A stretch of DNA of 64,000 nt, taken from the NCBI RefSeq assembly GCF_963921235.1, contig NC_086097.1, positions 103,604,001 through 103,668,000 of the forward strand, given 5' to 3'. Made by a program: the position numbers and the translations under genes. Of the stretch, positions 3,159 to 56,299 are shown in pieces. The notes under the pieces were generated by a model. The model did no database searches. It worked only from the letters and a program-made list of their open reading frames with translations, and was not told the origin of the DNA. Position 1 is the first letter of the stretch. Every line of letters starts with the position of its first letter. Source of the DNA: Mobula hypostoma. Its lineage: Eukaryota.

Positions 3159-3781
3159 CCACTGGGAGATCTTGCTCTGTTTGCCAGAGAAAGCAAGATC
3201 TCCCAGTGGCCACACGTTTTAAATCCTCGTCCCATTCCCATTCTGATATGTCTATCCACGGCCTCCTCTACTGTAAAGATGAAGCACACTTAGGTTGGAG
3301 GAATAACACCTTATATTCCGTCTGGGTAGCCTCCAACCTGATGGCATGAACATTGACTTCTCAAACTTCCGCTAATGTCCCGCCTCCCCCTCGTATCCCA
3401 TCTGTTATTTATTTATTGATTTATTTATATACACACATTATTTTTCTCTCTCTCCTTTTTCTCCCTCTGTTCCTCTCACTATACTCCTTGCCCATCCGCT
3501 GGGCTTCCTCCCTCCCCCTTTTCTTTCTCCCTAGGCCTCCTGTCCCATGATCCTCTCATATCCTTTTTGTCAATCACCTGTCCAGCTCTTGGCTCCATCC
3601 CTCCCCCTCCTGTCTTCTCCTATCATTTCGGATCTCCCCCTCCCCCTCCCACTTTCAAACCTCATACTAGCTCTTCTTTCAGTTAGTACCGACGAAGGGT
3701 CTCGGTCCAAAACGTCAACTGTACCTCTTCCTATAGATGCTGCCTGACCTGCTGCATTCACCAGCAACTTTTATGTGTGTT
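3159..3781 (+). mobile_element. Penelope-like element 3' fragment (GIY-YIG C-terminus plus pLTR)
   Basis: Closely matches the reverse complement of 39565-40160. Degenerate hammerhead at 3685-3720; 18-bp fold-back at the 5' junction. Confidence 0.88.
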
Positions 3782-4599: not shown

Positions 4600-5750
4600 A
4601 ATGTGCTGCTAGAAGATGAGATGGTGCTCCTTGAGCTTATCCTGTGCTTTGTTGGAACAGTGGAGGAGGTCGACGACAGAGGTCAGAGTAGAAGTGGGAT
4701 GGACAGGTTGAAGCTTAGTATTACTACTGTGGACTGAATAGAAGAGCCCTGTAATCTGCATTTGATTTCTTCCATGTCGAGGAGGCTGTTCCAGAGCACT
4801 GAATTTAGTGCACAAAATTGGAAGTATAAGGATCTCTACTTTACTTGGAATGACACTTTAATTGAGCAGTACTTTTAGGGAAAATCAACAATTCTTTCCC
4901 CAAAGATGCTGCCTGATTTGCTGAGCATTCCCAAAATTTCATATTTTTTTCAGATCTCCATTTATAACACCTCAGGAAATCCACCCTTCCAATTAATTTC
5001 TTCCATCATCCAGGGGCCCCAAACAGTTTTTCCACGTAAAGCAGTAATTCATTTGCACTGCTTCCAATGTTGTGCATTGCTTTCAGTTCACAAGTTTCCA
5101 GTCACCTGTCAATTCATTTCTCCATCTCTTTTCCAGTCCAACCTCTGTTTTGGTTTCCTATACTAATCAAACAAAGCCTAATACATAAGCTAGACAATCA
5201 GCACCTCACCTTTTGCATGGGCTTGTTGCAACCTCTGGAGTTTAATACTGCACATAAAAAATTCAGATAAGCAGCCTTTCGAGTTCTGATTCAAGGTCAT
5301 CGACTTGTAACATGAAGTCAGTGTTTCTCTTTTCACAGATGCTGTCTGATCTGCTGAGTATTCCTGGCATTCAACTTCAGATTTCTAGCAACTGCCAAAT
5401 TCTACTTTTCACTTTTCCGGCATGTTGCTTCTTTCCGTTGCCAGCAATCACCTTCTTTTACTTACACTCCTTCAAACACATTGGTATTGACGGAATTGTA
5501 TTAATTTTTAATTCTTATACAACACCAAAAAAAGTTGTGTCACCAGGACAACCTTGGTCTCCATCTTTTCAGATATCCCCTGTGTTCTCTCTATTCCTCC
5601 CCAACTCTGCAAATAAAACCATGCTCATTTCCTCACTTCTCCAGTTGTGAAGATTTATAGATCAGAAACATTAACTCTGTTTTCTCTCTACAGATGTTAC
5701 ATAAACCTGAGCCATGCCACTATTTTCTATTCTACTTCTGTCAAATGGAA
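4600..5750. mobile_element. Old Penelope-like remnants in both orientations
   Basis: Peptides KLKEHHLIF (-) and KLDNQHLTFCMGLLQPLEFN (+) resemble the GIY-YIG tail RLEEQHLIFRLGSLQPDGMN. pLTR-like cagatgctg...ctgctgag repeats; decayed hammerhead-like motifs near 5282 and 5643. Confidence 0.6.
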
Positions 5751-5820: not shown

Positions 5821-8800
5821 GGGTTCCGGTGACGCCATCGTTCAGAATGGCAGCTTAAATCAATAGCTCCTCTGAAAAAACGCATATTTTGCCCCGTTAA
5901 TCCATCATATACAAGATCTTTCGAAAATACCTTTATTGATAAGGGGAGCAAGAATGGGGAAAAAGAATGGAGATATAAAAAGCACCGCTGCGGAGCCTAT
6001 GGAAGAGAGAGGTTCAGCGCGCGGCTCTCCTACACGTGCGCGTGGCGGCGAAGCTGACGCAGGGCCTCGTGCAGGCGAAGCGGCAAATATGATAAGGATT
6101 CTGGAGGAGGTAAGGGAAGTCCAAAAAGATATAAAACAGCAACTCAATGATGCTGATGTCAATCAGAAAATAGCAGTGGCAGAGTCTCGAATTGAGAAGG
6201 TGGAAGATCACGAGCAAAATGTGGAACAGATACGAGTAAGACGATAAAAATATTAAATCAACAGGGAAGTAAATTGCTTGACCAGGAGGAAAGATCATGA
6301 CGGAAAAATATCAGGATTTATAATGTTCCCGAAGGAGCGGAGGGATTGTCGATGATGGACTTTGTAGATAAGCTGCTGTGGTAAGCGCTGGAGATTCCCC
6401 CGACAATGGAGATTGAAATTGAGAGAACGCATCATTCGCTCGTCCCGTGGCCCTCTGGAGACAGAGAAAGTAAACCACGCTCAATAGTACTTAAATTCTT
6501 TCAAGTCAAGAGCAAGACGGAGATTCTACGAAGGACCTGGGGTAAGAAGAGGGTTTTTTTGGAACGGTAAGTTAATATACTTCCATCATGATTAGCCCTC
6601 AGTGCTCCTACAGAAACGGAAGGAATATTCCAAAGCGAAACGAATATTAAAGCAAGTAAAGATTAAATTCCAAACCCTGCACCCTGCTAAACTGAGGGTA
6701 TTTTACCAAGAAGGGATACGACTATACCAGACGGTGGAAGAGGCGACTACAGACATGAACAATTAGCGTATTTCCCGAACTGCTTGGGAAATAGTAAGCG
6801 TCCTGAGAAAGCAGGGGACGGGAGCAGGACGAGAGAAGGATATTAGGAAGAGACTGTCAGTTCTCCGAGGGCAGCCCTCACCTCTTCCAGAAGAGCCATA
6901 AGGTTTGGCTAACTTTTAAAGTGCTGATACACTAAACAGAAGCAAAAATAGACAGTGATATACCTATCTCGAGAAATACGTATTAAAATGTGGATTTTAT
7001 ATTCTTGGCTCTATCCCTCCCCCTCCTGTCTTCTCCTATCATTTTGGATCTCCCCCTCCCCCTCCAACTTTTAAATCCCTTACTCACTCTTCCTTCAGTT
7101 AGTCCTGACGAAGGGTCTCGGCCTGAGACATCGACTGCACCTCTTCCTACAGATGCTGCCTGGCCTGCTGCGTTCACCAGCAACTTTGATGTGTGTTGCG
7201 TGGATTTTATATTACTCAATTTTTAAAATTCATTTGTTCATTCCCTTTTCCCCACCTAAATGAGAATATATACATGGGAGGAATACACAGGGAAATCATT
7301 TCTGTGTAATGGACACAGTTTTTTTACTTTTATAGGTACTGCAACAGGGGCCCTCAACCCACAGGTAGGAGGGGCTATCCCCCACAGCTCGACTTTTTTT
7401 CTAGCCCAACCCAGGGTCACCTAGAGACCCCAGCCTTGGAATCACACCTTTGTTACCTTTTTTTTATTATTTGCGTTTCTTGGCTCTTATTTGTTCAGGG
7501 AGTAGATCGATTAAGTTATACTCTGCAAATTTCAATGATATACTAACAGATAAATACACATGGCTAAGGACAAGGTAAAATTCATTTCTTTTAATGTCAG
7601 TGGACAGTCAAGCGCAGTAAAATTCTATCAAAAATGAAAAAAGAACAGGCCCATGTATATTTACAGGAAACTCACTTAAGTGATAATGAGCATGGAAAAT
7701 TAAAGAGAATGGACTTCACTAATTTGTTTTTCTCCTCATATAAATCAGGACATAGAAGAGGAGTTGCTATTCTCATCTCAAGCAAGCTAAAATTTGAAAA
7801 AGTATTTCAAATGGAAGATAAGGAGGGCAGATATATTCTAGTAAGGGGGAATATAGATGGAAATCCAGTTATTTTATTGAATATATACACCCCCCCCAGG
7901 AAGTGATATTAGTTTCTTACAGAAAATTACTAATATTATGGTAACAGAAACAGAAGGCCTCATGATATGTGGGGGAGACTTAAATTTACAATGACAACCA
8001 AAGTTAGACTCTTCCAATAGAAAAACTTATGAAACAAAGTCCTTACATAAGAAAGTTAACACTCTTTTTGAGGATGTTGGTCTAATTGATACATGGAGGG
8101 ACCTTTTCCCCGACAGAAGGGATTACACTCATTATTCTGCCCCCCATTCCGTATATACAAGAATAGACTACTTTATAACATTTGGAAAAGATAGAGACAA
8201 AAAAAAAATCACCTGTGGAATTGTGACCATGCACCTATGTACTTATCTGTTTATTTTGACCTACAACCAAAGAATACTATTTGGAAACTAAATTCAAATC
8301 GACTCAATGATCCCTATTTTAAAGAATAAATTAAAAAAGAAATTGGTCTTTACTTAGAATTCAATGATAATGGAGAGGTTTCACCTCCCATTCTATGCGA
8401 TACTCTGAAGGCCATCTTAAGAGGGAAAATTATAGCGATATCTTCATGTAAGACGAAAATAAGGAATAGAACATTAGAGGAATTACAAAATAAGCTGAAG
8501 GAACTAGAAAAAAAACAAATTGAGTTTGGCACAGGATACACTAGAGGAAATTTAAAACATTAGGAATGAAATTAATAGTTTGGCTACACAAGAAATCAGA
8601 AAAAATTTAATGTTTCTGAAACAGAGACACATGAAAGTGGATCTAAATCTATGAAAATACTGGAGTGGAAACTGAAAAAAAAGATAGCAGAAAATAGAAT
8701 TCATAGAATAAGGGATTCAAGAACAAAAGTGATAAAAAAAAATAAGCCAAGTGAAATTCAAGAAGTTTTTGAAATCATTTTACAAAACTCTATATTCCAA

Positions 8801-19829: not shown

Positions 19830-22800
19830 AACGCTGTGAAATGGCGACCCTCTAGAAGAAAACAAAAATGGCAGACAATGAGAAGCTCAAACGTGCCGTA
19901 CTGCCTTTCGGAGGAGTGGAGCTGCCAGCTGAAGGCGAGCGGCTGCCACATTCTCCGACCAACAGTTTGTGCACAGCACCCATGGCACAGTCTGAAGCAT
20001 CAGTAGTACCAAGGTTTAAAAACAGACCACCATATACAGCGGGCAGCGTTGTGAGTGGGCAACAGAGTGAGAGAGAGCAGAGTGGGATGGCTTTGACTCA
20101 CCAGTCTTCAGTGAGAACAGGCAGAGGCCAGGGTAGGTTCTGGTAAGATTTTTGTCCAGTTTGTTTGGAGTAGAGAGAATGCCAGGCAGGATGTTAGAAT
20201 GCTCCTTTTGCAGGATGTGGGAAGTCAGGGTGCCCTCCGGTGTCCCTGACAACGACACCTGCAAGAAGTGCATCCAGCTGCAGCTCCTAACAAACCGCGT
20301 TAGGGAACTGGAGCAGGAGCTGGATGACCTCCGGATCATTCGGGAGAATGAGGAGATTATAGATAGTAGCTACAGGGAGGTAGTTACGCCAAAGGAGCAG
20401 AGGACAGGAAACTGGGTCACTGTCAGGCGAGGGAAGAGGAAATGGCAGACAGAGCAGGGTTCCCCTGTGGCCATTCCCCACAACAACAAGTATACTGTAT
20501 TGGATACTGTTGGGGGGAGATGACTTACCTGGGACAAGCTGCAGTAGCCGGATCTCTGGCACTGAGTCTGGTTCTGCAGTGCAGAAGGGAGGGTGGAAAA
20601 AGAGGAGAGTGGTAGTGATAGGGGACTCGATAGTTAGAGGTGCAGATAGAAGGTTCTGTGGTCGTGACAGAGAATCCAGGATGGTTTGTTGCCTCCCAGG
20701 TGCCTGGATCAAGGATGTCTCTGATCACTTGCATGACATTCTGAAGTGGGAGGGTGATCAGCCAGATGTCGTGGTGCACATCGGTACCAATGACATAGCA
20801 AGGAAGAGTGAGGAGGTCCTGGAGAGTGAGTATAGAGAGCTTGGTAGGAAGTTGAAAAGCAGGACCTTGAGAGTGGTAATCTCAGGATTGCTACCTGTGC
20901 TACGTGCCAGTGAGGGTAAGAATAGGATGCTCTGGAGGATGAACAAGTGGCTGAGGAACTGGTGTAGGGGGCAGGGTTTCAGATTTCAGGATCATTGGGA
21001 CCTCTTCTGGGGCAGGTGGGACCTGTACAAGAGAGATGGGTTGCACTTGAACTACAAGGGGACCAATATCCTTTCAGGGAGGTTTGTTAGTGCTATTGCG
21101 GAGGCTTTAAACTAGATTTGCAGGGGGATGGGAACCAGGGTGCCAGAGCTGACAGTGTGGCTGGGGTGAAAATAAATGATGTTAAACGTTCAAGCAAATC
21201 CGCTAATAGAAAGGTTGTGAGTGGTGGTAAAAATCTTCTGAGGTGTGTATATTTCAATGCTAGGAGTATTGCAGGGAAGGCAGACGAGTTGAGGACGTGG
21301 ATTGACACGTGAAATTATGATGTTATAGCAATTAGTGAAACTTGGCTACAGGAGGGGCAGGACTGGCAGCTTAATATTCCAGGGTTCCGATGTTTCAGAT
21401 GTGATAGAGGCAAAGGAATGAAAGATGGGGGGGGGTGGGGAAGTAGCATTGCTTGTCAGGGAAAATGTTGCAGCAGTGCTCAGGCAGGACAGATTAGAGG
21501 ACTTGTCTACTGAGTCCTTATGGGTGGAGCTGAGAAACAGGAAAGGTATGGCCACATTAGTGGTGTTGTATTATAGACCACCCAATAGTCAGCGAGAATT
21601 GGAGGAGCAAATTTGCAGAGAGATAGCAGGCAACTGCAGGAAACATAAAGTTGTGGTGGTAGGGGATTTTAATTTTCCACATATAGATTGGGACTCCCAT
21701 ACTGTTAGGGGTCTAGATGGTTTAGAGTTTGTAAAATGTGTTCAGGAAAGTTTTCTAAATCAATATGTAAAGTTACCAACTAGAGGGGATGCAATATTGG
21801 ATCTCCTGTTAGGAAACAAGTTAGGACAAGTGACAGAAGTGTGTGTAGGGGAGCACTTTGGTTCCAGTATTCATAACACCATTAGTTTCAACTTGATCAT
21901 GGACAAGGATAGATCTGGTCCTAGGGTTGAGGTTCTGAACTGGAAGAAGGCCAAATTTGAAGAAATGAGAAAGGATCTAAAAAGCGTGGATTGGGACAGG
22001 TTGTTCTCTGGCAAGGATGTGATCGGTAAGTGGGAAGCCTTCAAAGGAGAAATTTTGAGAGTGCAGAGCTTGTATGTTCCTGTCAGGGTTAAAGGCAAAG
22101 TGAATAGGAATAAGGAACCTTGGTTCTCAAGGGATATTGCAACTCTGATAAAGAAGACGAGAGTTGTATGACATGTATAGGAAACAGGGAGTAAATAAGG
22201 TGCTTGAGGAGTATAAAAAGTGCAAGAAAATACTTAAGAAGGAAATCAGGAGGGCTAAAAGAAGACATGAGGTTGCCTTGGCAGTCAAAGTGAAGAATAA
22301 TCCAAACAGCTTTTACAGGTATATTAAGAGTAAAAGGATTGTAAGGGATAAAATTGGTCCTCTTGAAGATCAGAGTGGTCGGCTATGTGTGGAAGCAAAA
22401 GAAATGGGGGAAATCTTAAATTTTTTTTTGCATCTGTATTTACTAAGGAAACTGGCATGAAGTCTATGGAATTCAGGGAAACAAGTAGTGAGATCATGGA
22501 AACTGTACAGATTGAAAAGGAGGAGGTGCTTGCTATCTTGAGGCAAATTAAAGTGGATAAATCCCCAGGACCTGACAGGATATTCCCTCGGACCTTGAAG
22601 GAGACTAGTGTTGAAATTGCAGGGACCCTGGCAGATGTATTTAAAATGTCAGTGTCTACGGGTGAGGTGCCGGAGGATTGGAGAGTGGCTTATGTTGTTC
22701 TGTTGTTTAAAAAAGGATCGAAAAGTAATCCGGGAAATTATTGGCCGGTAAATTTGACGTCGGTAGTGGGTAAGTTATTGGAGGGAGTACTAAGAGACAG

Positions 22801-23803
22801 AATCTACAAGCACTTGGATAGACAGGGACTTATTAGGGAGAATCGACATGGCTTTGTGCGTGGTAGTGGATGTTGTCTACATGGACGTCAGTAAGGCCTT
22901 TGACAAGGTCCCGCATGGGAGGTTAGTTAGGAAAATTCAGTCACTAGGTATACGTGGAGAGGTAGTAAATTGGATTAGACATTGGCTCAATGGAAGAAGC
23001 CAAAGAGTGGTAGTAGAGAATTGCTTCTCCGAGTGAAGGCCTGTGACTACTGGTGTGCCACAGGGATCAGTGTTGGGTCCATTGTTATTTGTCATCTATA
23101 TCAATGATCTGGATGATAATGTGCTAAATTGGATCAGCAAATTTGCTGATGATACAAAGATTGGAGGTGTAGTGGACAGTGAGGAAGGGTTTCAAAGCTT
23201 GCAAAGGGACTTGGACCAGCTGGAAAAATGGGCTGAAAAATGGCAGATGGAGTTTAATACAGACAAGTGTGAGGTATTGCACTTTGGAAGGACAAACCAA
23301 GGTAGAACATACAGGGTAAATGGTAAGGCACTGAGGAGTGCAGTAGAACAGAGGGATCTGGGAATACAGATACAAAATTCCCTAAAAGTGGCGTCACAGG
23401 TAGATAGGGTCGTAAGGAGAGCTTTTGGTACATTGGCCTTTATAAATCAAAGTATTGAGTATAAGAGCTGGAATGTTATGGTGAGGTTGTATAAGGCATT
23501 GGTGAGGCCGAATCTGGAGTATTGTGTTCAGTTCTGGTCACCAAATTACAGGAAGGATATTAATAAAGTTGAAAGAGTGCAGAGAAGGTATACAAGGATG
23601 TTGCCGGGACTTGAGAAACTGAGTTACAGAGAAAGGTTGAATAGGTTAGGACTTTATTCCCTGGAGGGTAGAAGAATGAGGGGAAATTTGATAGAGGTAT
23701 ATAAAACTATGATGGGTATAGATAGACTAGGCAGAAAATGGTTCGGCACAGCCAAGAAGGGCCAAAAGGCCTGTTTCTGTGCTGTAGTTTTTCTAAGGTT
23801 TCT
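19830..23803 (+). mobile_element. Near full-length CR1 LINE (ORF1 zinc finger plus SGNH esterase 20179-21115; ORF2 EN+RT ~21118-23720, frameshifted)
   Basis: CSFC...CKKC finger; GDS/VHIGTND/DGLHLN esterase motifs; [24 protein letters not shown]; tail ctgtagtttttctaaggtttcta. 5' boundary approximate. Confidence 0.93.
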
Positions 23804-25549
23804 AGTAAAGGCGATAGGTGCATGGGGAGCAGGTACATCTGTAGGGTCGCTTTGGAAAGAGCTTCCTTGTATCATCAAATGCCCTGATCATGTCTGCTGA
23901 CCAGTCAAGTACATGATGAGGAGCATAAATTCACGGAATGAAGCAATGATAGAAATTCAGCGTGCCTAAAATCTCCTGTAGTTTTTTAGTAGTAATCCAT
24001 ATTATGGTAGGTAATCCATAATAGTGGCTACTTTAGATGAGAGGGGTTTCACACCTTCTGTGGGGATGTGATGGCTGAGAAAGTCAATGATTGATAACCC
24101 AAACTGGAATTTAGTAGGATTAATAATCAATCCCTGTTGACTTGAGCACTCGAAAAGTGTGCAGAAATGAGATACGTGTTCTGATTTGGAGGCATTGACG
24201 ATAGGTATGTCATCCAGGTAATCAAAAAGAAAGTCTAAGTCTTTTAATACAGAGCCCATCAGCCGTTGGAAAATCTGTGCTGCATTTTTCAGCCTAAATG
24301 GCATGAGCAGAAACTCAAATAGGCCAAACGGGGTTATCATAGCCGTTTAGGAAACGTGGTGCATGCGCTTGACAGAGTCATTGTGGGGAATTTACTGCTG
24401 GAGCAGGGTAAAGACTCAAAGTCCTTGACATCCACCATCCACAAGCCACCAATTTTTAAGACTGACCAACAGTCCTTGGGCTCACAGGAGATCTGCACCG
24501 AGCAGAGGTCCAGACACTTTAGCCAGGATAAAGTCCCATTCATAACGCCACCTTCTGAAGCAGAGTGTCACCCGTTGTGTCCCGGTCTGGATCTCGGCAG
24601 TCTCTAGCAAGGTTTCGTTGCTTTTTCCCTTTTCATCAATAAGCGATGCTGGCAGCACACTTACTTGAGCACCTGTGTATCACAGGAAGCATCACCCTAA
24701 CAGGGTACTTGTCATGAACAGCAGACATCCCTGGCAGCTGGAACCCATGGTGTTCTCAGACCTCTGAGGTCCTGATGCACTGGCACTGTCAAGTTACAAG
24801 GCGGTCAGCATTTTCTCGTGTTCCTACCAAAGCGAGCATGATAAAACACAGAACTGGTGTCATCTCTTTCTCAGCTGCTGGCGTCCTTATGATGAGGGCC
24901 TTGCTGACCAAACCTATTGAGGTAGAGAAAGGAGGAGGAATGATGTACTGCAGCCTCGCCAAATGTAGAAAATCAGCCATCTTGGCAACCTCCCTATAGT
25001 CCTTCATGGATGCATTAGCGAGGGCTATGTGAACGAGCAGGCACTTACTGCACGAAGAGTTCTTTAAAAATAGAACAAGGACAGTGATTTCCCAGGAGAG
25101 ATAGCATGTGGTCCATTAGCTCTAAAGGCCTAGCATCACTGAGAACGAGTAAAGAGAGCAACTGTTTGGTGTGCTCAGACTCTGACAGTCCAAAAGTCTG
25201 TAAAAGCTGAGTTTTCAGCAATCGGTATTTATCACATACAGGCAGGTGTTCTAGTAGACTCACCATTCTCACAGCCAGGATTTGCTGAGCGATGCTACCA
25301 CGTAGAATATTCGGTGTTGTCAGCGGAGATATCTCGCAGCATGAATTGGGCCTCGGCTTCTACAAACCAAGCATTGGCATTTTTCTCCCAAACTCCGCAA
25401 GTTTCAAAGCAACTGCATTGGCCGTCATGTTTAATAACTCTGGAATTGTCCCAGAGCATCAGGGTCATCAACGTAGGTAAAACAACAGAGGCATTTTATG
25501 TTTAAGTTGTAGCAGCTCTTAGACATAAAATCCCTCCAAAGAAAGCTGG

Positions 25550-28031: not shown

Positions 28032-29783
28032 CATAGAACCATAGAACATTACAGCACAGAAACAGGCCTTTTAGCCCTTCTTGGCTGTGCTGAACCATTT
28101 TTCTGCCTAGACCCACTGACCTGCACACGGACCATATCCCTCCATACACCTCTCATCCATGTACCTGTCCAAGTTTTTCTTAAATGTTAAAAGTGAGCCC
28201 ACATTTACCACTTCATCTGGCAGCTCATTCCACACTCCCACCACTCTCTCTGTGTGAAGGAGCCCCCCACAATGTTTCCTTTAAACTTCTCCCCCTTCAC
28301 CCTTAACCCATGTCCTCTGGTCTTTTTTCTCCCCTAGCCTCAGTGGAAAAAGCCTGCTTGCATTCACTCTATCTATACCCGCCATAATTTTATATACCTC
28401 TATCAAATCTCCCCTCATTCTTCTATGCTCCAGGGAATAAAGTCCTAAACTATTCAACCTTTCTCTGTAACTCAGTTTCTCAAGTCCCGGCAACATCCTT
28501 GTAAACATTCTCTGCACTCTCTCAACCTTATTAATATCCTTCCTGTAATTTGGTGACCAAAACTGTACACAATACTCCAAATTCAGCCTCACCAATGCCT
28601 TATACAACCTCACCATAACATTCCAACTCTTATACTCAATACTTTGATTTATAAAGGCCAATGTACCAAAAGCTCTCTTTACGACCTCATCTACCTGTAA
28701 CGTAATTTTTAGGGAATTTTGTATCTGTATTCCCAGATCCCTCTGTTCTACTGCACTCCTCAGTGCCTTACCATTTACCCTGTATGTTCTACCTTGGTTT
28801 GTCCTTCCAAAGTGCAATACCTCACACTTGTCTGTATTAAACTCCATCTGCCATTTTTCAGCCCATTTTTCTAGCTGGTCCAAATCCCTCTGCAAGCTTT
28901 GAAAACTTTCCTCACTGTCCACTACACCTCCAATCTTTGTATCATCAGTAAATTTGCTGATCCAATTTAGCACATTATCATCCAGATCATTGATATAGAT
29001 GACAAATAACAATGGACCCAGCACTGATCCCTGTGGCACACCACCAGTCACAGGCCTCCACTCAGAGAAGCAATCCTCCACTACCACTCTCTGGCTTCCT
29101 CCATTGAATCCAATTGAATATCTAATCCAATTTACTACCTCTCCATGTATACCTAGTCACTGAATCTTCCTAACTAACCTCCCATGCGGGACCTTATCAA
29201 AGGCCTTACTGAAGTCCATGTAGACAACATCCACTGCCTTCCCTTCATCCACTTTCCTGGTAACCTCCTCAAAAGACTCTAATAGATTGGTTAAGCATGA
29301 CCTACCATGCAAAAAGCCATGTTGACTCTCCCTAATAAGTCCCTGTCTATCCAAATATTTGTAGATTCTATCTGTATAGGTTCCATGACCTCACTACTTG
29401 TTTGCCTTATTTCCATTGACTCCATGCCAGTTTCCTTAGTAAATACAGACGCAAAAACCCATTTAAGATCTCCCCCATTTCTTTTTGTTCCATACATAGC
29501 TGACCACTCTGATCGTCAAGAGGACCAATTTTAACCCTTACTATCCTTTTGCTCTTAATATACCTGTAGAAGATCTTTGGATTATCCTTCACCTTGACTG
29601 CCAAAGCAACCTCATGTCTTCTTTTAGCCCTCCTCATTTCTTTCCTAAGTTTTTTTTTGCACTTTTTATACTCCTCAAGCACATTATTTGCTCCGTTTCC
29701 TATGTATATCATACAGCTCTCTCTTCTTCTTTATCAGAGTTCCAATATACCTTGAGAACCAAGGTTCCTTATTCTTATTCACT
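28032..29783 (-). mobile_element. Young CR1 LINE, 5'-truncated, same subfamily as 19830-23803 and 57590-58148
   Basis: 268-aa RT ORF nearly identical to 23043..23900; catagaaccatagaac tail; internal deletion near 29365. Confidence 0.93.
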
Positions 29784-30120: not shown

Positions 30121-30295
30121 GAATTCTAAAATAAAAATAGAAAATACTACAAACACTCAGCAGGTCAGGCAGCATCAGTGGAAAGAGAAACAGAAACAGA
30201 TACCATTTCAAGGTGATAAAGGCTATGCAACCTTAAGGGTTAAGTCTGTTTCTCTCTCCACAGATGCTGCCTACTTCCAGTATTTTCTGTTTCTA
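30121..30295. mobile_element. Old Penelope-family short inverted (palindromic) pLTR remnant
   Basis: Left arm ...aggcagcatcagtggaaagagaaacaga versus right arm tctgtttctctctccacagatgctgcct. Confidence 0.6.
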
Positions 30296-31299
30296 TATAT
30301 ATTAATTGATTCATTATTTTAAAGATTTCCCTTTAAAAATTTCACAAAATTCTATTTTATTGGCACAACTGCAATCCTGCCACTCACACAGCTTTTGTGC
30401 TTCCCTGATATTAATCATTCCACAATGCTCATGTCATGTATTTAAATCGCAATATAAAATACACCTCACAAGAATATTAGCAAACAAAATTTAAACAACA
30501 AACTGAGAAAAGTAACATTAGAACATATGATCAAAATTTTATTCCAAGAGATATACAGGAATGTTTGCAAGAAGGAATAAACACAGGAAGGTAATTCCTG
30601 AGCTTGTGGTCTTGGCAGCTCAACAAACAACTGCCAATGGTGCAGCAATTAAATTTTGGGCTAATCACAGTATTTGAATGTATCACAATATATCACAACA
30701 ACTTCGGTGCTGGTGGATATTACAGCATTCAAGGGGGCAAGATCAAAGGAGAAATTTTAAACTGAGACACTGCTTAAATATTAATGTCAAATTCTGTCTT
30801 TTTATTCTGTAAAGTGCCCAAATGTTCTTATTCTGTTGAGCTTTGATTCTTGGTCAAAATCTTAAGTTTTATTGAGTATTTTACAAAAGATGAAGTAGGA
30901 ATTCCTTCAAACATTATACAGCTGCTAGTCAAAAGGCCAGCTTATCCTCATTTTAAGCCTTGTTCACAAGACGATGGTAAGGTTAGGAGTGTCGTGGGTT
31001 TATTTAAGAAGGGGGAAAAATATAGTAAGATAGTAAACCTGGAATGAACAAAAACAGAATGCAAAGAATTCAACAGATATACAAAGAGAAAGTGTGTTGA
31101 AGACATAATGTTGGTCTCACGAAGTCAGAAACAGGGAAATTATAATGGTGAGCAAAGAAATAACATACCAACTGAACACAATCTGGATCTGGCTTCATAA
31201 AGGATATTACAAGTAATGTTGGGGAACCTATGGTCTAGTTAGAGTGAGGAACAGAAGAAAATCAGTATGAGTAGAGATATGGTTTTTGAGAAACTGAAG

Positions 31300-34910: not shown

Positions 34911-35330
34911 CTTCGGATTCTGGACTAGTCTCTATGGCTTGGATAGTAGCTTCTTTCTCTGGTTACCTTTTTGCATTTAATACAGATAAATATTTTGCAA
35001 TTTTCCTTAATCATGTCAACCATTAATATTCCATCTTTGCTCTCTTTTTGTAAGTAGTCTTGTTGTTCCTCCTCAATTTTTAGCTCTACAACAAGCATGC
35101 ACTTTTTTTTCTTTATCCAATCCTCTTTATTTCCTTAGACTTAGAGTAAGGCTTCCTTAGACTTGTCCTTATCTTTCAGATTTATGGAAATACATTGGCC
35201 CTAAACTCTCAGTATTTCATCTTTATTTCCACCCCATTTGTCAGATGCAAATTAACATGCAAGTAGCTGCTCCTAGTCTATTTCTGCCAGATCCCAAAAT
35301 ATATTGAAATCAGCTTCCCCAATTCAGGAT

Positions 35331-35542
35331 GCAAACAACAGGAATTCTGCAGATGCTGGAAATTCAAGGAACACACATCAAAGTTGCTGGTGAACGCAGC
35401 AGGCCAGGCAGCATCTCTAGGAAGAGGTACAGTTGACGTTTCAGGCCGAGACCCAGGGTCTTGGCCTGAAACGTCGACTGTACCTCTTCCTAGAGATGCT
35501 GCCTGGCCTGCTGCGTTCACCAGCAACTTTGATGTGTGTTCC
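35331..35542. mobile_element. Palindromic Penelope-derived mini-insertion
   Basis: 87-bp arms at 35368-35454 and 35456-35542 with a 1-nt spacer. Direct repeat TTCCCCAATTCAGGAT at 35315-35330 and 35539-35554. Confidence 0.92.
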
Positions 35543-35699
35543 CCAATTCAGGATCTTAATTTCTCAACCATTGTTCATTCCCTTTGTATGACTACCTTGA
35601 AACCTACAGAGTGATGGTGAATATTTCCAAAATATTCTCCTGATGATGCTCCAAACCCTTGCCCAGTTACATTAACTGGGATTAGACCCAGTTAGATGG

Positions 35700-36350
35700 C
35701 TCAAACACCATCTGCTGAAGATACAACTATTGTTGGCAGAATCTCAGATGGAGATAAGAGGGCGTACAGGAGACAGATATTAGTTGAGTGGTGTCGTGCC
35801 TTGTGCTCAATGTTAGTAAGAACAAAGAGCTGATTGTGAACTTCAGGAAGGGCAAGACAAGGGAACATGAACCAATCCTCATAGAGGAGTCAGATGTGGA
35901 GAGAGTGAGCAGTTTCAAGTTCCTGGGTGTCAAGATCTCTGAGGATCTAACCTGGTTCCAACATATCCATGTTGGCAAGACAGAAGCTACATTTCATTTG
36001 GAGTTTGAAGAGATTTAATTTGTCACCAAAAACACTCAAAAACTTCTATAGATGTACGATGGAGACCATTCTGAGACCAGGCTGCGTCACAGTTTGGCAT
36101 GGGACAGAAAGTTGTAAGATTAGACAGATTCATCTTGGGTTCTAGCCTCCGTGGTATCCAAGACATCAACAAGGAGCAGTGTCACAGAAAGGCAGCATCC
36201 ATTATTGAGGACCCCCATCACCCAGAGCATGCCCTCTTTTCACTGTTACCGTCATGAAGCCTGAAGAAACATTCAACAATTCAGTAACAGCTTCTTCCCC
36301 TCTGCCATGTGATTCCTAAACAGACCTGAACCCATGAACACTATCTCACT
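35700..36350 (+). mobile_element. Rex1/Babar LINE 3' fragment
   Basis: LNVSKNKELIVNFRK...VERVSSFKFLGVKISEDLTW. Confidence 0.8.
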
Positions 36351-37211: not shown

Positions 37212-39045
37212 TAGACAATAGACAACAGGTGCAGGAGTAGGCCATTTGGCCCTTCGAGCCAGCACCACCATTCACTGTGATCATGGCTGATCATCCACAA
37301 TCAGTATCCAGTTCCTGCCTTATCCCCATAACCTTTGATTCCGCTATCTTTAAGAGCTCTATCCATCTCTTTCTTGAAAGCATCCAGAGACTTGGCCTCC
37401 ACAGCCTTCTGGGGCAGAGCATTCCATATATCCACCACTCTCTGGGTGAAAAAGTTTTTCCTCAACTCCGTTCTAAATGGCCTACATCTTATTGTTAAAT
37501 TGTGGCCTCTGGTTCTGGATTCACCCATCAGCGGGAACATGCTTCCTGCCTCCAGCGTGTCCAATCCCTTAACAATCTTATATGTTTCAATAAGATCCCC
37601 TCTCAGCCTTCTAAATTCCAGAGTATACAAGCCCAGACACTCCAATCTTTTGACATATGACAGTCCCGCCATCCCAGGAATTAACCTTGTGAACCTACGC
37701 TGCACTCCCTCAATAGCAAGAATGTCCTTCCTCAAATTTGGAGACCAAAACTGCACACAGTACTCCAGATGTGGTCTCATCAGGGCCCTGTACAGCTGCA
37801 GAAGGACCTCTTTGCTCTTATACTCAATTCCCCTTGTTATGAAGGCCAGCATGCCATTAGCTTTCTTCACTGCCTGCTGTACTTGCATGCTTGCTTTCAG
37901 TGACTGATGTACAAGAACACCTAGATCTTGTTGTACTTCCCCTTTTCCTAACTTGACTCCATTTAGATAATAATCTGCCTTCCTGTTCTTACCACCAAAG
38001 TGGATAACCTCACATTTATCCACATTAAACTGCATCTGCCATGCAGCTGCCCACTCACCCAACCTGTCCAAGTCACCCTGCATTCTCATAACATCCTCCT
38101 CACATTTCACATTGCCACCCGGCTTTGTGTCATTGGCAAATTTGCTAATATTACTTTTAATTCCCTCATCTAAATCATTGATATATATTGTAAACAGCTG
38201 TGGTCCCAGCACTGAACCCTGCGGTACCCCACTGGTCACCGCCTGCCATTCCAAAAGGGACCCGTTAATCACTACTCTTTCTTTTCTGTCAGCCAGCCAA
38301 TTTTCAATCCATGTCAGTACTCTGCCCCCAATACCATGTGCCTTAATTTTGCCCACTAATCTCCTATGTGGGACTTTATCAAAGGCTTTCTGAAAGTCCA
38401 GGTACACGACATTCACTGGCTCTCCCTTGTCCATTTTCATAGTTACATCCTCAAAAAATTCCAGAAGATTAGTCAAGCACAATTTCCCCTTCGTAAATCC
38501 ATGCTGACTTGGACCAATCCTGTTACTACTATCCAGATGTGTCATAATTTCATCTTTTATAATTGACTCCAGCATCTTTCCCACCACAGTCAGGCTAACC
38601 GGTCTATAGTTCCCTGTTTTCTCTCTTCCTCCCTTCTTGAAAAAAGGGACAACATTAGCCACCCTCCAATCCATAGGAACTGATCCTGGATCTATAGAAC
38701 ATTGGAAAATGATTACCAATGCGTCCATGATTTCTAAAGCCTTAAGTACCCTGGGATGCAGACCATCAGGTCCCGAGGACTTATCAGCCTTCAGACCCAA
38801 CAGCATTTCCTGCCTAATATAAATTTCCTTCAATTCATCCATTACCCTAGGTCCTTTGGCCACTATTATATCTGGGAGATTGTTTGTGTCTTCCCTAGTG
38901 AAGACAGATCCAAAGTACCTGTTCAACTCATCTGCCATTTCCTTGTTCCCCATAATAAATTCACCCACTTCTGTCTTCAAGGGCCCAATTTTGGTCTTAA
39001 CTATTTTTTTCCTTTTCACATACCTAAAGAAGAAGAAAAAGAAGT
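37212..39045 (-). mobile_element. 5'-truncated CR1 LINE with an uninterrupted RT reading frame, nested in Tc1
   Basis: Forms most of the 634-aa ORF 37301..39205; [10 protein letters not shown]; catalytic motif reads FAND; ctattgt-type tail at 37212. Confidence 0.93.
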
Positions 39046-39564
39046 CTTTTTCAACAGTGGCTTTCTCTTTGCCCACTCTCCCATAAAACTGCGACTGGTG
39101 AAGCACCCGGGCAACAGCTGTTGTATGCACAGTCTCTCCCATCTCAGCCACTGAAGCCTGTAAGTCTTCCAGAGTTGTCATAGTTTTCTTGGTGACCTCC
39201 CTCACTGGTCACTTTCTTGCACGGTCACTCAGTTTTTGAGGACGGCCTGCTCTAGGCAGATTTACAGCTGTGCCATATTCTTTACATTTCTTGATGATTC
39301 ACTTAACTGGACTCCAAAGGACAATCAGTGACTTGGAAATTTTCTTGTATCCATCTCCTGACTTGTGCTTTTCAATAACCTCTTCATGGAGTTGCTTGGA
39401 GTGTTCATTTGTCTTCATGGTGTAGTTTTTGCCAGGATACTGACTCACCAGCAGTTGGACCTTCCAAATACAGGTGTATTTTTACTACAATCAATTGAAA
39501 CATCTTGACTGCACACAAGGGATCTCCATTTAACTGACTTCTAAAACCAACTGACTGCACAAGT

Positions 39565-41837
39565 AACACACATAAAAGTTGCTGGTGAATGCAGCAAGCC
39601 AGGCAGCATCTCTAGGAGGAGGTACAGTCGACGTTTCGGGCTGAGACCCTTTGTCAGGACTAACTGAAAGAAGAGCTAGTAAGAGATTTGAAAGTGGGAG
39701 GGGGAGGGGCAGATCCGAAATGATAGGAGAAGACAGGAGGGGGAGGGATGGAGTCAAGAGCTGGACAGTTGATTGGCAAAAGAGATATGAGAGGATCATG
39801 GGACAGGTGGCCTACGGAGAAAGAAAAGGGGGAGGGGGGAAAAACCAGAGGATGGGCAAGGGGTATAGTGAGGGGGACAGAGGGAGAAAAAGGAGAGAGA
39901 GAAAAAGAATGTGTGCATATAAATAAATAACGGATGGGGTACGAGGGGGAGGTGGGGCATTAGCAGAAGTTTTAGAAGTCAATGTTCATGCCATCAGGTT
40001 GAAGGCTACCCAGACGGAATATAAGGTGTTGTTCCTCCAACCTGAGTGTGGCTTCATCTTTACAGTAGAGGAGGCCGTGGATAGACATATCAGAATGGGA
40101 ATGGGATGTGGAATTAAAATGTGTGGCCACTGGAAGATCCTGCTTTCTCTGGTGGACAGAGCGTAGGTGTTCAGCGAAACGATCTCCCAGTCTGCGTTGG
40201 GTCTCGTCAATATATAGAAGGCCACATCGGGAGCACTGAACGCAGTATATCACCCCTGTCGACTCACAGGTGAAGTGTCACCTCACCTGGAAGGACTGTC
40301 TGAGGCCCTGAATGGTGGTGAGGGAGGAAGTGTAAGGGCATGTGTAGCACTTGTTCAGCTTACAAGGATAAGTGCCAGGAGGGAGATCAGTGGGGAGGGA
40401 TGGGGGGGGGAACGAATGGACAAGGGAGTCGCGTAGGGAGCGATCCCTACGGAAAGCGGGGGGGGGAGGGAAAGATGTGCTTAGTGGTGGAATCCCATTG
40501 GAGGTGGTAGAAGTTACGGGAATTATATGTTGGACCCGGAGGCTGGTGGGTAGGTGAGGACAAGGGGAACCCTATTCCTAGTGGGGTGGTGGGAGGATGG
40601 AGTGAGAGCAGATGTGTGTGAAATGGCGGAGATGTGTTTGAGATCAGAGTTGATGGTGGAGGACGGGAAGTCCCTTTCTTTAAAAAAGGACATCTCCCTC
40701 GTCCTGGAATGAAAAGCCTCATCCTGAGAGTAGAAGCGGCGGAGACGGAGGAATTGTGAGAAGGGGATGGCATTTTTGCAAGAGACAGGGTGAGAAGAGG
40801 AATAGTCCAGGTAGCTGTGAGAGTCAGTAGGCTTATAGTAGACATCAGTAGATAAGCTGTCTCCAGAGACAGAGACAGAAAGATCAAGAAAGGGGAGGGA
40901 GGTGTCAGAAATGGACCAGGTAAACTTGAGGGCAGGGTGAAAGTTGGAGGCAAAGTTAATAAAGTCAACGAGCTCAGCATGCGTGCAGGAAGCAGCGCCA
41001 ATGCAGTCGTTAATGTAGCGAAGGAAAAGTGGGGGACAGGTACCAGAATAGGTTTGGATCATAGATTGTTCCACAAAGCAAACAAAAAGGCAGGCAGAGC
41101 TAGGACTCATACGGATGCCCATGGCTACACCTTTAGTTTGGAGGAAGTGGGAGGAGCCAAAGGAGAAATTATTAAGAGTAAGGACTAATTTCACTAGACG
41201 GAGCAGAGTGGTGGTAGAGGGGAACTGGTTAGGCCTGGAATCCAAAAAGAAGTGGAGAGCTTTGAGACCTTCCTGATGGGGGATGGAAGTATACAGGGAC
41301 TGGACATCCATGGTGAAAATAAAGTGGTGGGGGCCAGGGAATTTAAAATCATTGATAAGTTCCAGAGCGTGAGAAATGTCACAAACATAGGTAGGAAGGG
41401 ATCGAACAAGGGGGGATAAAACAGTGTCGAGGTATGCAGAAATGAGTTTGGTGGGGCAGGAGCAAGCTGAGACAATAGGTCTACCAGGACAGGCAGGTTT
41501 GTGGATCTTGGGTAGGAAGTAGAAACGGGAAGTGCGGGGTGTGGGAACTATAAGGTTGGTAGCAGTGGATGGGAGATCCCCTGAGCGGATAAAGTCGGTG
41601 ATAGTATGGGAGAAAATGGCCTGGTGCTCCTTAATGGGTTCACGATCGAGGGGTAAATAAGAGGAGGTATCCGCAAGCTGTCGCTGTGCCTTGCCAAGGT
41701 AGAGGTCAGTACGCCAGACTACAACAGCACTAACCTTATCGGCGGGTTTTATAGTAAGGTTAGGACTAGTGAGGAGGGAGTGGAGAGCAGAGCGTTCGGA
41801 AGGAGTGAGGTTGGAATGGGAACACTCAACTTGTGTG
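39565..41837 (-). mobile_element. Penelope-like retroelement (5'-truncated RT, GIY-YIG endonuclease, pLTR) nested in Tc1
   Basis: PLE RT motifs IKPADK, FYFLPKIHK...RPIVS, MDVQSLYTSIP, QTKGVAMG, RYIND, VYYKPT. GIY-YIG IYCVQCSRCGLLYIDETQRRLGDRFAEH at 40253-39972. 12-bp TSD GACTGCACAAGT at 39553-39564 and 41838-41849. Confidence 0.95.
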
Positions 41838-42282
41838 GACTGCACAAGTGATGATTTGTTGTGTCCTATTAAAGGAAGTGAATACTTATGCAAACAATTA
41901 TTTTGTGATTTATATTTGTAATTAATTTAGATCACTTTGTCGAGATCTGTTTTCACTTTAACATGAAAGAGTCTTTTTTTGTTGAGCAGAGTCAAAAATG
42001 TCAAATTAAATCCACTGTGATTCAGTATTGTAAAACAATAAAACATGAAAACTTCCAGAGGGGGTGAATACTTTTTATAGACACTGTATATGGTTTCTGT
42101 TTTTCACTATCTTTAACTATTTAAAATACACTTAAATACTTTAATTTATTTACTTATTTCTTTTACTTTCGATATTATCATGTATTGCATTGACTGCTGC
42201 TGCTAAGTTAACAAATTTCAGGACACACGTCAACAATAATAAACCTGATTCTTATTCTGCAGCTTCTGTTTTGGGACTACCA

Positions 42283-52300: not shown

Positions 52301-52744
52301 AGAAAAGGCACCTTTTATTCCCACTCACTGCTTTCTGCCTGTCAGCCATTCCTCTATCCATGCCAGTATCTTTCCTGTAACTCCATAGGATTTGATCTTG
52401 TTAACCAGCCCTACGTGTGGCACCTTATCAAATGCCTTCTGAAAATCCGAGTAAATGACATTCACTGCCTCTCCTTTGTCCACCCTGCTGGTTACTTCCT
52501 CAAAGAACTCTTAACAGATGTGTCAGGCAAGATTTCCCTTTACAGAAACCATACTGAGTGACTTATTTTATCATTAGTCCCCAAGTACCCAGAAACTTCA
52601 TCCTTAGTAATAGACTCCAACACTTTCCCAACCACTGAGGTTAGGCTAACAACAGGAATTCTGCAGATGCTGGAAATTCAAGCAACACACATCAAAGTTG
52701 CTAGTGAACACAGCAGGCCAGGCAGCATCTCTAGGAAGAGGTAT

Positions 52745-52780
52745 AGTCGACATTTCAGGCCGAGATCCTTCATCAGGACT
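52745..52780 (-). ncRNA. Minimal type I hammerhead ribozyme motif (sense to the STARD9 pre-mRNA)
   Basis: Minus strand reads AGUC-CUGAUGA-AGG-AUCUCGG-CCU-GAAA-U-GUC^GACU: stem I, core and stem II intact. Confidence 0.7.
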
Positions 52781-53061
52781 AACTGAAGGAAGAGTTAGTA
52801 AGAGATTTGAAAGTGGGAGGGGGAGGGGGAGATCCAAAATGATAGGAGAAGACAGGAGGGGGAGGGATGGAGCCAAGAGCTGGACAGGTGATTGGCAAAG
52901 GCACCTCCTGTCCCATGATTCCCATGATCCTCTCATATCCCCTTTGCCAATCACCTGTCCAGCTCTTGGCTCCATCCCTCCCCCTCCTGTCTTCTCCTAT
53001 CATTTTGGATCTCCCCCTCCCCCTCCTACTTTCAAATCTCTTACTAACTCTTCCTTCAGTT

Positions 53062-53097
53062 AGTCCTGACGAAGGGTCTCGGCCTGAAACGTCGACA
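53062..53097 (+). ncRNA. Minimal type I hammerhead ribozyme motif
   Basis: AGUC-CUGACGA-AGG-GUCUCGG-CCU-GAAA-C-GUC^GAC; palindromic ACGU replaces stem III; predicted cleavage after 53093. Confidence 0.78.
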
Positions 53098-53633
53098 GTA
53101 CCTCTTCCTAGAGATGCTGCCTGGCCTGCTGTGTTCACCAGCAACTTTGATGTGTGTTGCTGGCCTATAATTCCTTTGTTTTTTGCCTTCCTCCCTTTTT
53201 AAAGAGTGAAGTGACATCTGCAATTTTTCAGTCCCCCGGGACCATGCCAGAGTCAAGTGATTCTTGAAAAATCACGACCAATGCATCTGTTATCAGCAAC
53301 CTCTCTCAGGACTCCAGGATGTAGTCCATTTGGTCCAGGTGATTTATCCACCTCAAGAACTTTGAGTTTACCTAGCAATTTTTCCTTTGTAATAGCAATG
53401 GCACACACTCTTGCTCTCTGATACTCTGGGACCTCTGGCACACTGCAAGTGTCTTCTACAGTGAAGACTGATGCAAAGTACTCATTAAGTTCATCTGACA
53501 TTTCTTTGACCCCATTACTGCCTCTCCAGCATCATTTTCCAGTGGTCCAATATCAACTCCCTTCTACTCTTTATATAACTGAAAAAACTTTTAGTATCCT
53601 GCTTTATATTATTGGCTAGTTTGCCCTCATATT

Positions 53634-53848
53634 TCAAAGTTGCTGGTTAACGCAGCAGGCCAAGCAGCATCTATAGGAAGAGGCGCAGTCGACGTTTCAG
53701 GCCGAGACCCTTCGTCCTGACGAAGGGTCTCGGCCTGAAACGTCGACTGCGCCTCTTCTTATAGATGCTGCTTGGCCTGCTGCGTTCACCAGCAACTTTG
53801 ATGTATGTTGCTTGAATTTCCAGCATCTGCAGAATTCCTGTTGTTTGC
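53634..53848. mobile_element. Palindromic Penelope-derived mini-insertion with an intact hammerhead core (53714-53747, + strand)
   Basis: 83-bp arms at 53634-53716 and 53719-53801 with a 2-nt spacer. Direct repeat GTTTGCCCTCATATTT at 53619-53634 and 53843-53858. Confidence 0.92.
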
Positions 53849-56299
53849 CCTCATATTTGATCTTTTCCCTTCTTATAGCTTTTTCAGTTGCCTTTTGTTG
53901 GATTTTAAAAGCTTCACAATTATCCAACTTCTCACTTACTTTTGCTACCTTATATGCCCTTTCCTTGGCTTTTATGCAGTCCTTAATTTCCCTTGTCAAC
54001 CATGGTTGCCTACCCTTGCCATTTGAGAACAACTTTTTCTGTGGGACATAGCTATCCTGTGCCTTGTGGACTATTCTCAGGAACTTTAGCCATCTCTGCT
54101 CTGTCATCATCCCCATCAGCATTCTCCTCCAATCCACCTGGGGAAGCACCTCTCTCATCCCTTTATTACACTGTGATATTGATACATGTGAGTTATATTT
54201 CTCCCTCTCGAATTGCTGTATGAATCCAATCATATTATGATTACCTCTGCCATAGTCATGAACTTTCAAGAATCTCTAGATTCTGAAATGTTTCCAGAGA
54301 CTGGAAAAGCGGAAATGTCACTCTACTCTTCAAGAAGAGAGGGAGGAAGGAGAAAGGAAACTATAGGCCTGTTAGCCTGATGTCAGTGGTTAGGAAGATG
54401 TGAGTCAATTGTTAAGGATATGGTTTCCCGGTACTTGGAGGCATATGATAAAATAGGCCAAATTCAGCATGATTTAAGGGAAAGTCTTGCCTGATAAATC
54501 TGTTAGTATTTATTTTGGAGAGGACTAAAATATAAAAGCAAAGATGTAATGTTGAGGCTTTATAAGGCACTGGAGAAGCCTCACTTAGAGTACTGCAAGC
54601 AGTTTCAGGCCCCTTATTTAAGAAAGGATGTGATGACGTTGGAGAGGATTCCAAAGAGGTTCACAGCAATTATTCCGGAATGAAAGGCTCATCAAATGAG
54701 GAGTGATTGATCGCTCTGGGCCTTTACGCGCTGGAATTTAGAAGAATGAGGAGAGAATTTCAATGAAAACTATTGAATGTTGAAAGGCCTAGGTAGAGTG
54801 GATATGGAAAGGATGTTTCCCATGGTTGAGGAGTCTAGGACCAGAGAGCACAGACTTAGAATAGAGGGACATCCACTTAAAACAGGGATGAGGAGGAATT
54901 TTTTTAACCAGAGAGTGGTGAATCTGTGTAATCCATTACCACAGGTAGCTGTGGAGGCCAGGTCATTCATTGGGTGGATTTAAGGTGGAGGTTGATAGCT
55001 TCTTGATTAGTCAGTTTACAGGGAGAAGGTAGGAGCCTGGGTCTGCTCTTATGTCTTATGAAAAAGGGCCAGTATCACGTGAAGAATCCCACTCACCCTG
55101 TCATGGACTGTTTGTCCCACTTCCTTCAGGGAGGAGGCTACGCAGCATTCATGCTAGGAACACCCAACTCAAAAACAGTTATTTTTCCAAAGCAGTAAGG
55201 CTGATTTACACCTCACTTACAAGCCTACCTCACTCCACACCCCCAACCACCACTACTTTATTAATTCCTGTCAATCACCTTATGCACAGACACTCCTGTG
55301 CCAAGATTGCTTTATGGACATACAATCAATCTATATAAATAGCTATCTTATGTATTTACATTTATTGTTCTATTGTTACTATTCTGTTCTTTATCTTTTG
55401 TGGTGCTGCATTGGATCCGGAGTGACAATTATTTCATTCTCCTTTACATGTGTGTACAGGAAATGACAATAAACAATCTTGAATCTTGAGCATCTCCACC
55501 TCAGCACCATTGATATAGACAGGATACCCCACCCTACTTTCTGAAGTCAATGAGCAGTTCTTTTGTTTTGTTGACATTGAGGGAAAGATCGTTGCCATGA
55601 TACCATGTCACTAGTCTCTTCATCTCCTTCCTGTACTCCGACTCATTGTTATTTGAGATACGGCCCACTACAGTGGTATCATCTGCAAACTTGTACTGTA
55701 GTTACAGCAGAAACTGGCCACACCCTCTCAGGTATACAGGGAGTAAAGTAGGGGCTGAGGACTCAGCCTTGTGTGAAAACAGTGTATAGGATAATCATGG
55801 TGATGGTGTTACTAACTGCAGTCTGTGGTCAAGAAATCAAGGATCCAGCTGCGGAGGAAGGTGCTGAGTCCCAGGTCTAGAAAGTCGTAATTATATTATA
55901 CAAGTCAGAGCCAAAGTCAATAATTAGAAGTCTGGCATCGGTGTCTTTGTTAACCAGGTTGTCTAGAGATGAATGTAGCACCATGGTCCTGCTTCAGCAG
56001 TATTTCAGTGGGTTGAGGTTGGTGGATCAGGGGAGGTGGTATAAACAGATACAATAACAATAATTAAACAGGTACATGAAAATTTACATGGAGAGATATG
56101 TGCAGTTTAAACTGTAAACAGTCACCACAGATGTAGTGGATCTGTTCTTGTGCTGTACTGTTCAATGTTTGTTCTTCACAAGTCAATATACGAGCAAAAC
56201 TATTTTACTGAGAAGAATTCATGAAAAGCGTGTACATATTTAGAATATCTAGCCACATAAATAGAAGTAATACCTTTTAGAAAAGAACACAATACTCAC

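Follow-up and report, generated by a model that had tools for sequence, protein, structure and literature searches.

Two truncated ends of a Penelope-like retrotransposon, joined head to head at a hammerhead motif in a single dated insertion of Mobula hypostoma

A 208-bp unit at positions 35331–35538 of the window, the whole 64,000-nt stretch of Mobula hypostoma DNA analysed here, consists of two 5'-truncated ends of a Penelope-like retrotransposon of apparent Neptune type, placed head to head and provided with one tail of 39 nt. Contigs from public runs confirmed that the unit is one real, dated insertion. Its layout, head to head with a one-sided tail, has already been published, and the unit is a by-product of ordinary insertion. 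It probably arose in a single integration in which both target ends would have primed cDNA synthesis, both cDNAs would have stopped early, and the two would have been joined head to head. The product was dead on arrival, having no hammerhead core and no open reading frame, and its transcript is predicted to fold into one long hairpin (-181.7 kcal/mol).

A repeat finder recovered the two structural features on which the original prediction was built, namely the 87-nt inverted arms around 35455 (35368–35454 and 35456–35542, 98% complementary) and the exact 16-nt direct repeat that flanks the 208-bp insert (Table 1). The chance of such a direct repeat is ~2e-7, even across 25x25 candidate positions. 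The arms are indeed separated by 1 nt, but the base between them, previously taken as a gap, is best read from the sequence as belonging to the right arm, where it was templated, and not as a spacer, since intact copies carry an A before GGGTC. The true element arms extend from 35370 to 35454 and from 35455 or 35456 to 35540, and the two outermost bases of the repeat-finder arm, 35541–35542, belong to the target-site duplication (TSD); they are matched in part by a G at 35369 that is private to the unit, this position being C in ~96% of the family depth in run X1. The final TT of the right-arm GTGTGTT is common to the element and the TSD. One arm does run on beyond the other, by 39 nt and not by the ~37 nt first estimated, and the same 39-nt tail recurs in the units at 52645 and 53848. 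The two mismatches between the arms (35434/35476 and 35448/35462) are both CpG to TpG changes, and therefore the arms were identical when inserted. Each arm differs from the in-window family consensus at 1 of 85 positions, which fits the dated age of the insertion.

Table 1. Coordinates of the two-armed unit and of related copies in the window (TSD stands for target-site duplication, RT for reverse transcriptase and pLTR for the terminal repeat of Penelope-like elements).
Feature	Position	Strand	Remarks
TSD, left copy, 16 bp	35315..35330	.	Single copy in the empty allele of run X18
Penelope 'tail', 39 nt, bounded by the family's two 3' end sites	35331..35369	-	Loose ends accumulate at 35331 and 35370
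Left arm, 5'-truncated pLTR end	35370..35454	-	Begins at GGGTC of hammerhead stem II; without CTGACGA
Right arm, 5'-truncated pLTR end without tail	35455..35540	+	Unpaired A ahead of stem II through to GTGTGTT
Hammerhead remnant: stem II, GAAA, CG, TC, stem I 3' strand	35456..35480	+	Comparison with the intact copy at 53066
TSD, right copy, 16 bp	35539..35554	.	Direct repeat; empty site
Long single-armed copy, same family	39565..41837	-	Decayed RT, CX4CxxC linker, GIY-YIG/CCHH endonuclease; 12-bp TSD 39553–39564 and 41838–41849
Second two-armed unit, absent from the original prediction	53619..53858	.	Insert 53635–53842 (208 bp), 16-bp TSD, 89-nt arms
Third two-armed unit	52645..53161	.	221-nt arms, 39-nt offset, tail on left; no TSD found
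Single-armed copy, 196 bp	7004..7199	+	Ends at the no-tail site; 14-bp TSD
Single-armed copy	3159..3781	+	Ends at the no-tail site; short snap-back palindrome 3159–3209 at the 5' end

Contigs from 4 of 22 public runs (X1, X5, X18 and X19) aligned to 35000–35760. Those of organism A (X1, possibly the source sample) span 35000–35352 and 35517–35742 with no differences, and those of organism B (X5, a separate study) span 35000–35355 with three differences and 35516–35713 with two; both outer junctions are present in the reads of the two organisms, the listed contigs stopping short of the centre. The empty orthologous site that the original prediction had suggested looking for was found in organism F (X18), where one 526-nt contig passes from 35314 directly to 35539, with 224 bases absent and the 16-mer present once. 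Because this empty site has a single 16-mer, the event was one insertion with a true TSD, and the unit entered in one piece, as had been proposed. Since the insertion is present in A and B and the site is empty in F, it took place after F had split off and before A and B separated. A and B differ at 5 of 554 aligned bases, and F differs at 21 of 462. For organism G (X19), coverage is confined to 35000–35324 on the left, with next to no depth on the right flank, and so has no bearing on the empty site. The insertion is a clean presence/absence marker, common to A and B and absent in F.

Between the arms and the 3' ends of the copies at 3781, 7199, 39565, 52645–53161 and 53634–53848, identity is 85–97%; with the end of the 39565 copy, it is 91–92%. 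In this long copy, RVT_1 was matched just below the cut-off (E 1e-6, 29 bits, cut-off 29.6). A GIY-YIG-like stretch, in which VIYC..C..CG..YI and two later H are visible, was matched at Pfam E 0.05 only, below the cut-off. The linker between RT and endonuclease reads CKLNKCYTC and fits CX2-5CxxC, a motif which, in the available text of PMC8557442, characterizes Neptune and Nematis but is lacking in Penelope/Poseidon. By this motif, the family appears to be of Neptune type; an initial reading as Poseidon clade was dropped in view of the CX4CxxC linker. Pattern scans for further family copies gave no stretch in genome contigs, 1 in viral contigs and 114 in metagenome contigs, and as none of these 115 loci matched beyond ~27 nt, they were taken as chance.

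The window holds three young two-armed units, and the two others are built like the one at 35331–35538 (hereafter the first unit) with turns of their own. The second unit (53635–53842) turns at GTC-CT-GAC in the hammerhead core and has its tail on the right; its short arm stops 8–9 nt before the inner site of the family, and both arms carry the same four variants relative to the consensus. The third unit (52645–53161) turns ~170 nt upstream of the hammerhead. These two units join at GTC and AGG matches, respectively. The palindrome at 3159–3209 lies in the endonuclease region, on a natural CTCTG/CAGAG stem ~500 nt upstream, and has no partner arm. TSDs vary within the family (16, 16, 14, 12 and none). 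As side observations, the first and second units share a length of exactly 208 bp and a TSD length of 16 bp, although they differ in junctions, ends and haplotypes; the equal length may be chance (n=2). The third unit apparently sits inside a LINE fragment at a 2–3-nt match, with a 9-nt duplication near its turn.

In the runs, loose ends from other copies concentrate at 35331 (at least 168 in X1 and 154 in X5), and likewise at 35370 and the mirrored position 35540 (227/193, 240/171, 119/60 and 40/40 in four runs), the X1 counts being lower bounds. The family thus has two end sites 39 nt apart, of which the first unit uses one per side, and single-armed copies end at the same inner site as its no-tail arm. 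The common end GTGTGTT, attributed to four copies in the original prediction, is shared by those at 3781 and 39565, but the copies at 7199 and 53160 extend 2–3 nt further (GC and GCT). At all four TSD-defined inner ends, the first 8 target bases resemble the continuation of the template, with 18 of 32 positions matching (chance 8.5, p 3e-4); without the first two positions, 13 of 24 still match over these four ends (p 0.004). In these four cases, the likeness may reflect primer–template pairing or a preference of the endonuclease for tail-like DNA. The tail of the anole element is likewise the stretch between two reverse-transcription start sites, according to the available text of PMC11167929. 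Two minor features of the ends were also noted. Tail-to-tail joints 35331/35370, which connect the outer end directly to an inner end of the opposite strand, occur in 12 contigs of X1 and 2 of X5, and could be insertions that hit an end of the element itself, multi-arm events or circles. The tail arms of the first and second units each have a private base (35369 and ~53803) that stands in register with the target DNA next to the opposite arm and raises the likeness to it, either because the target was chosen by pairing with a variant RNA or through later hairpin-templated correction.

Intact copies of the family have stem I, CTGACGA, A, stem II, GAAA, CG and TC, in this order. This layout fits the minimal form described for metazoan Penelope-like hammerheads, with CUGANGA, one unpaired base before stem II and GAAA, and the intact copies share its core, unpaired base, GAAA and short palindromic loop 3 (available text of PMC4209133). 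Rfam at the gathering score gave no match in the 64-kb window and the folds did not exceed shuffled sequences in stability (z 0.03 and 0.62), and therefore the hammerhead label rests on the motif. The axis of the first unit falls at stem II, as originally described, more exactly at its 5' base (the unpaired A). It lies 20–21 nt upstream of the cut, which we place between 35475 and 35476, assuming the type I hammerhead rule. However, it does not lie inside a hammerhead in any functional sense. The CTGACGA core and the 5' strand of stem I are absent from both arms, and the core pattern occurs at four places in the window, none of them within the unit. Since both arms lack CUGANGA, the unit, judged by its motifs, is not a ribozyme, the hammerhead motif having been destroyed by the short cut. 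A turn at the ribozyme cut was rejected for this unit as well, given the distance of the axis, and 1 of 19 listed read junctions begins at the cut; the view of the unit as functionally ribozyme-centred is not supported.

These read junctions came from the 15 best-supported of 346 joints, together with the 12 best-supported of 283 that have intervening letters. After one tail-to-tail row, three rows not crossing the centre and four duplicates had been dropped, 19 were left, 13 of them with a reported overlap; the listing is ordered by support and misses skips of ≤30 nt as well as arms much longer than the reference. Among the listed joints, other copies turn at scattered positions, in a lopsided manner and often at 2–4-nt matches, with offsets of 0–62 nt between the arm starts. 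Two or more letters are shared in 9 of the 13 listed junctions with overlap (chance 15%, p ~1e-5) and, with edge rows removed, in 6 of 8 (p 2e-4). Six of the 19 turn wholly downstream of the cut. One arm starts at 35450–35460 in 10 of the 19 listed junctions (17% expected, p 4e-4), a stretch that is also the edge of the reference arm, which confounds the excess. Within the window, two of the three young two-armed units turn in the 5' half of the hammerhead; other turns lie 20–60 nt downstream, ~170 nt upstream and ~500 nt upstream. A bias of turning points towards the hammerhead 5' half is possible, and from these two units and the 10 of 19 listed junctions, a structural stall site may exist. 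Our literature search, which covered few subscription papers, found no mapping of inversion centres on the hammerhead and no account of Penelope hammerheads in cartilaginous fish. Separately, the joints 35416>35494 and 35453>35486 were seen repeatedly, either across three organisms or across several contigs, and the former is symmetric about a short CTAG/TATA palindrome; both could be hot spots, old shared loci or the result of later duplication.

In the single integration that we propose, the target was cut with a stagger of 14–16 nt, as the duplications show. Both target 3' ends would then have primed reverse transcription, one at the inner site (GTGTGTT) and the other at the outer site 39 nt on, using the same RNA or sister RNAs from one source copy as template. 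The two cDNAs would have stopped early, after ~85 and ~124 nt, and their ends would have been joined head to head. In general, a stalled cDNA end would meet a 2–4-nt inverted match, either on the partner cDNA or on itself, but the join in the first unit is itself blunt. Because the hammerhead lies 65–95 nt from the inner start and holds a cluster of short inverted matches, short units would often turn there, and such turns would need no catalysis. The first unit has no match at its turn and an offset of 1 nt, and the short-match rule leaves both unexplained; the blunt, nearly symmetric turn is the least explained part of this unit. Of the original proposal that fold-back or template switching at the ribozyme generates such units, the turning of cDNA during integration is likely, while the centring on a functional ribozyme is not retained. 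In a more specific version, which is rather unlikely, the stubs of this very abundant family would record an integration intermediate, in which both target ends pair over several bases with RNA at the two start sites and both cDNAs tend to stall at one barrier in the hammerhead 5' half; candidates for the barrier are the fold of the ribozyme, a dimer of RNAs joined through it and an overlapping hairpin. If that were true, the commonest insert (~208 bp, as in the two units) would owe its size to the hammerhead region, with no cutting involved, a role for which the literature searched gave no precedent.

The central sequence is identical whether two cDNAs were joined or one cDNA snapped back, so the latter has to be weighed on other grounds. 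Here one target-primed cDNA would stall, fold on a short inverted match and copy itself, and the new strand would then be linked to the second target end, perhaps through annealing with a short tail cDNA. Snap-back clearly occurs in this family, as seen from the copy at 3174, whose short 5' palindrome stands on its stem with no second arm, and self-priming has been proposed from junction palindromes of rotifer elements (available text of PMC3846280). The turn of the second unit, a 3-bp stem with a 2-nt loop, would also suit it. However, the 1-nt loop of the first unit has no stem and cannot self-prime directly. That the arms within each unit carry one haplotype, and that the private tail-arm bases of the first and second units match the target beside the other arm, would follow from self-copying, yet pure self-copying alone leaves unexplained why the no-tail arm of the first and third units ends at a family start site, and the shorter cDNA cannot supply the tail. 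We regard this origin as unlikely. The strong form of stalling at the hammerhead, in which the fold, paired RNAs or a CCUUC..GAAGGG hairpin over the core stalls the reverse transcriptase and turns are concentrated at the stem II base, appears distinctly unlikely. The first and second units turn 5–10 nt apart, one more read contig is centred within 2 nt of the centre of the first unit, and the predicted hairpin ends at AAGGG, the start of both arms; an old unit at 30131–30296 also seems to turn in its own hammerhead-like region. Turns are found far from the hammerhead too, however, and the excess of listed junctions starting at 35450–35460 coincides with the reference edge, with 4 of its 10 rows having unknown or unlisted intervening letters or lying ≤2 nt from that edge. 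The shuffle-like stability of the folds is no help to this reading either. Metazoan Penelope hammerheads are thought to act as dimers (available text of PMC4209133), but insertion in vitro did not require hammerhead cleavage (available text of PMC11167929).

Two further explanations were weighed. A longer palindromic insert may have lost its middle after insertion or in assembly. Perfect palindromes are unstable, no listed contig spans the centre of the locus, the junction lacks a short match, and removal of 13 central bases from a junction of the second-unit type yields exactly that of 35331–35538. Nevertheless, the arms differ at two CpG sites only, which is what an insert that was fixed and then aged at its site should show, reads of other copies show similar short centres, and the outer junctions are common to two organisms from separate studies, which makes a secondary centre highly unlikely. 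Copying of the unit as a whole, in the manner of a MITE, as first suggested, or of a retrozyme, is extremely improbable. Its first 20 nt are unrelated to the reverse complement of its last 20 nt, leaving no terminal inverted repeats, and its central junction occurs once in the 64-kb window. The equal length and 16-bp TSDs of the first and second units would fit such copying, but the two differ in junction, ends and haplotype, TSDs vary across the family, and there is no intact hammerhead. Similarly, the recurring joints 35416>35494 and 35453>35486 turn up in several contigs, or at depths several times that of a single copy, but the reads contain hundreds of distinct joints and contig depth is not a copy number. 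For a retrozyme, moreover, there is no tandem array of direct units in the window and no complete hammerhead in the unit.

The unit has close parallels among known systems. Inverted Penelope-like insertions, Pen2a_Av and Pen2_Av, have been reported from Adineta vaga (PMC3846280; PMC8557442, Fig. 2 legend), and inverted 5'-truncated copies with a one-sided tail of 30–40 nt and one TSD have been described (PMC3846280; PMC8557442; PMC8969392), as far as the available text of these sources goes. The original prediction had likened the unit to such a product with good reason, since the unit combines a family with RT and GIY-YIG, a head-to-head join, a one-sided 39-nt tail and one TSD. Like Pen2a_Av and Pen2_Av, it has head-to-head 5'-truncated copies within one TSD, a tail at one end only and a junction palindrome; unlike these two as described in the available text, both its arms are <130 nt, it has no ORF or direct pLTR, and an empty site dates the event. 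PAc, a Poseidon element of Anolis carolinensis, provides a biochemical parallel from a different clade: its protein cuts and extends both target strands, two start sites bound its tail, and hammerhead cleavage is dispensable (available text of PMC11167929). Unlike PAc, the family here has the CX4CxxC linker of Neptune/Nematis, and whereas PAc starts in vitro without target homology, the four TSD-defined ends here resemble the template above chance (available text of PMC11167929). Opposite-strand hammerhead pairs 100–700 bp apart are recorded from Schistosoma (available text of PMC4209133). In contrast to minimal hammerheads, the two motifs of the unit are both cut off before the core, and neither can be a ribozyme. 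In L1 twin priming, both target ends prime, junctions have short matches and the inversion lies within one TSD, the arms copying different parts of one RNA. The unit differs in that its two arms are copies of one and the same 3' end, begun at two fixed start sites. It resembles non-LTR retrozymes in being a small non-coding derivative of Penelope pLTRs, but retrozymes are tandem direct repeats with intact hammerheads, whereas the unit is a single inverted pair without them (available text of 10.64898/2026.07.22.740005). As an object, the unit matters little, being a dead stub of a known insertion pattern. In a genome with very many stubs and with the empty sites of relatives, two-end priming, snap-back and hammerhead stall become separable by counting.

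Several older remains were noted elsewhere in the window, which is mostly repeats. At 30131–30296, a pLTR family of more distant kinship has left an old two-armed unit, now decayed, for which no TSD was found. At 57349–57506 lies a copy of an older subfamily, single-armed with a tail and a 10-bp TSD, which starts ~25 nt upstream of a decayed hammerhead. Weak profile matches to the pLTR end at 4878–4926 and 5275–5369 (E 2e-4 and 2e-5) are probably old relics. Long LINE-like reading frames extend over 37301–39208, 21422–23900, 28281–29156 and 10025–11281, which by eye we take to be CR1-like and L1/Tx1-like.
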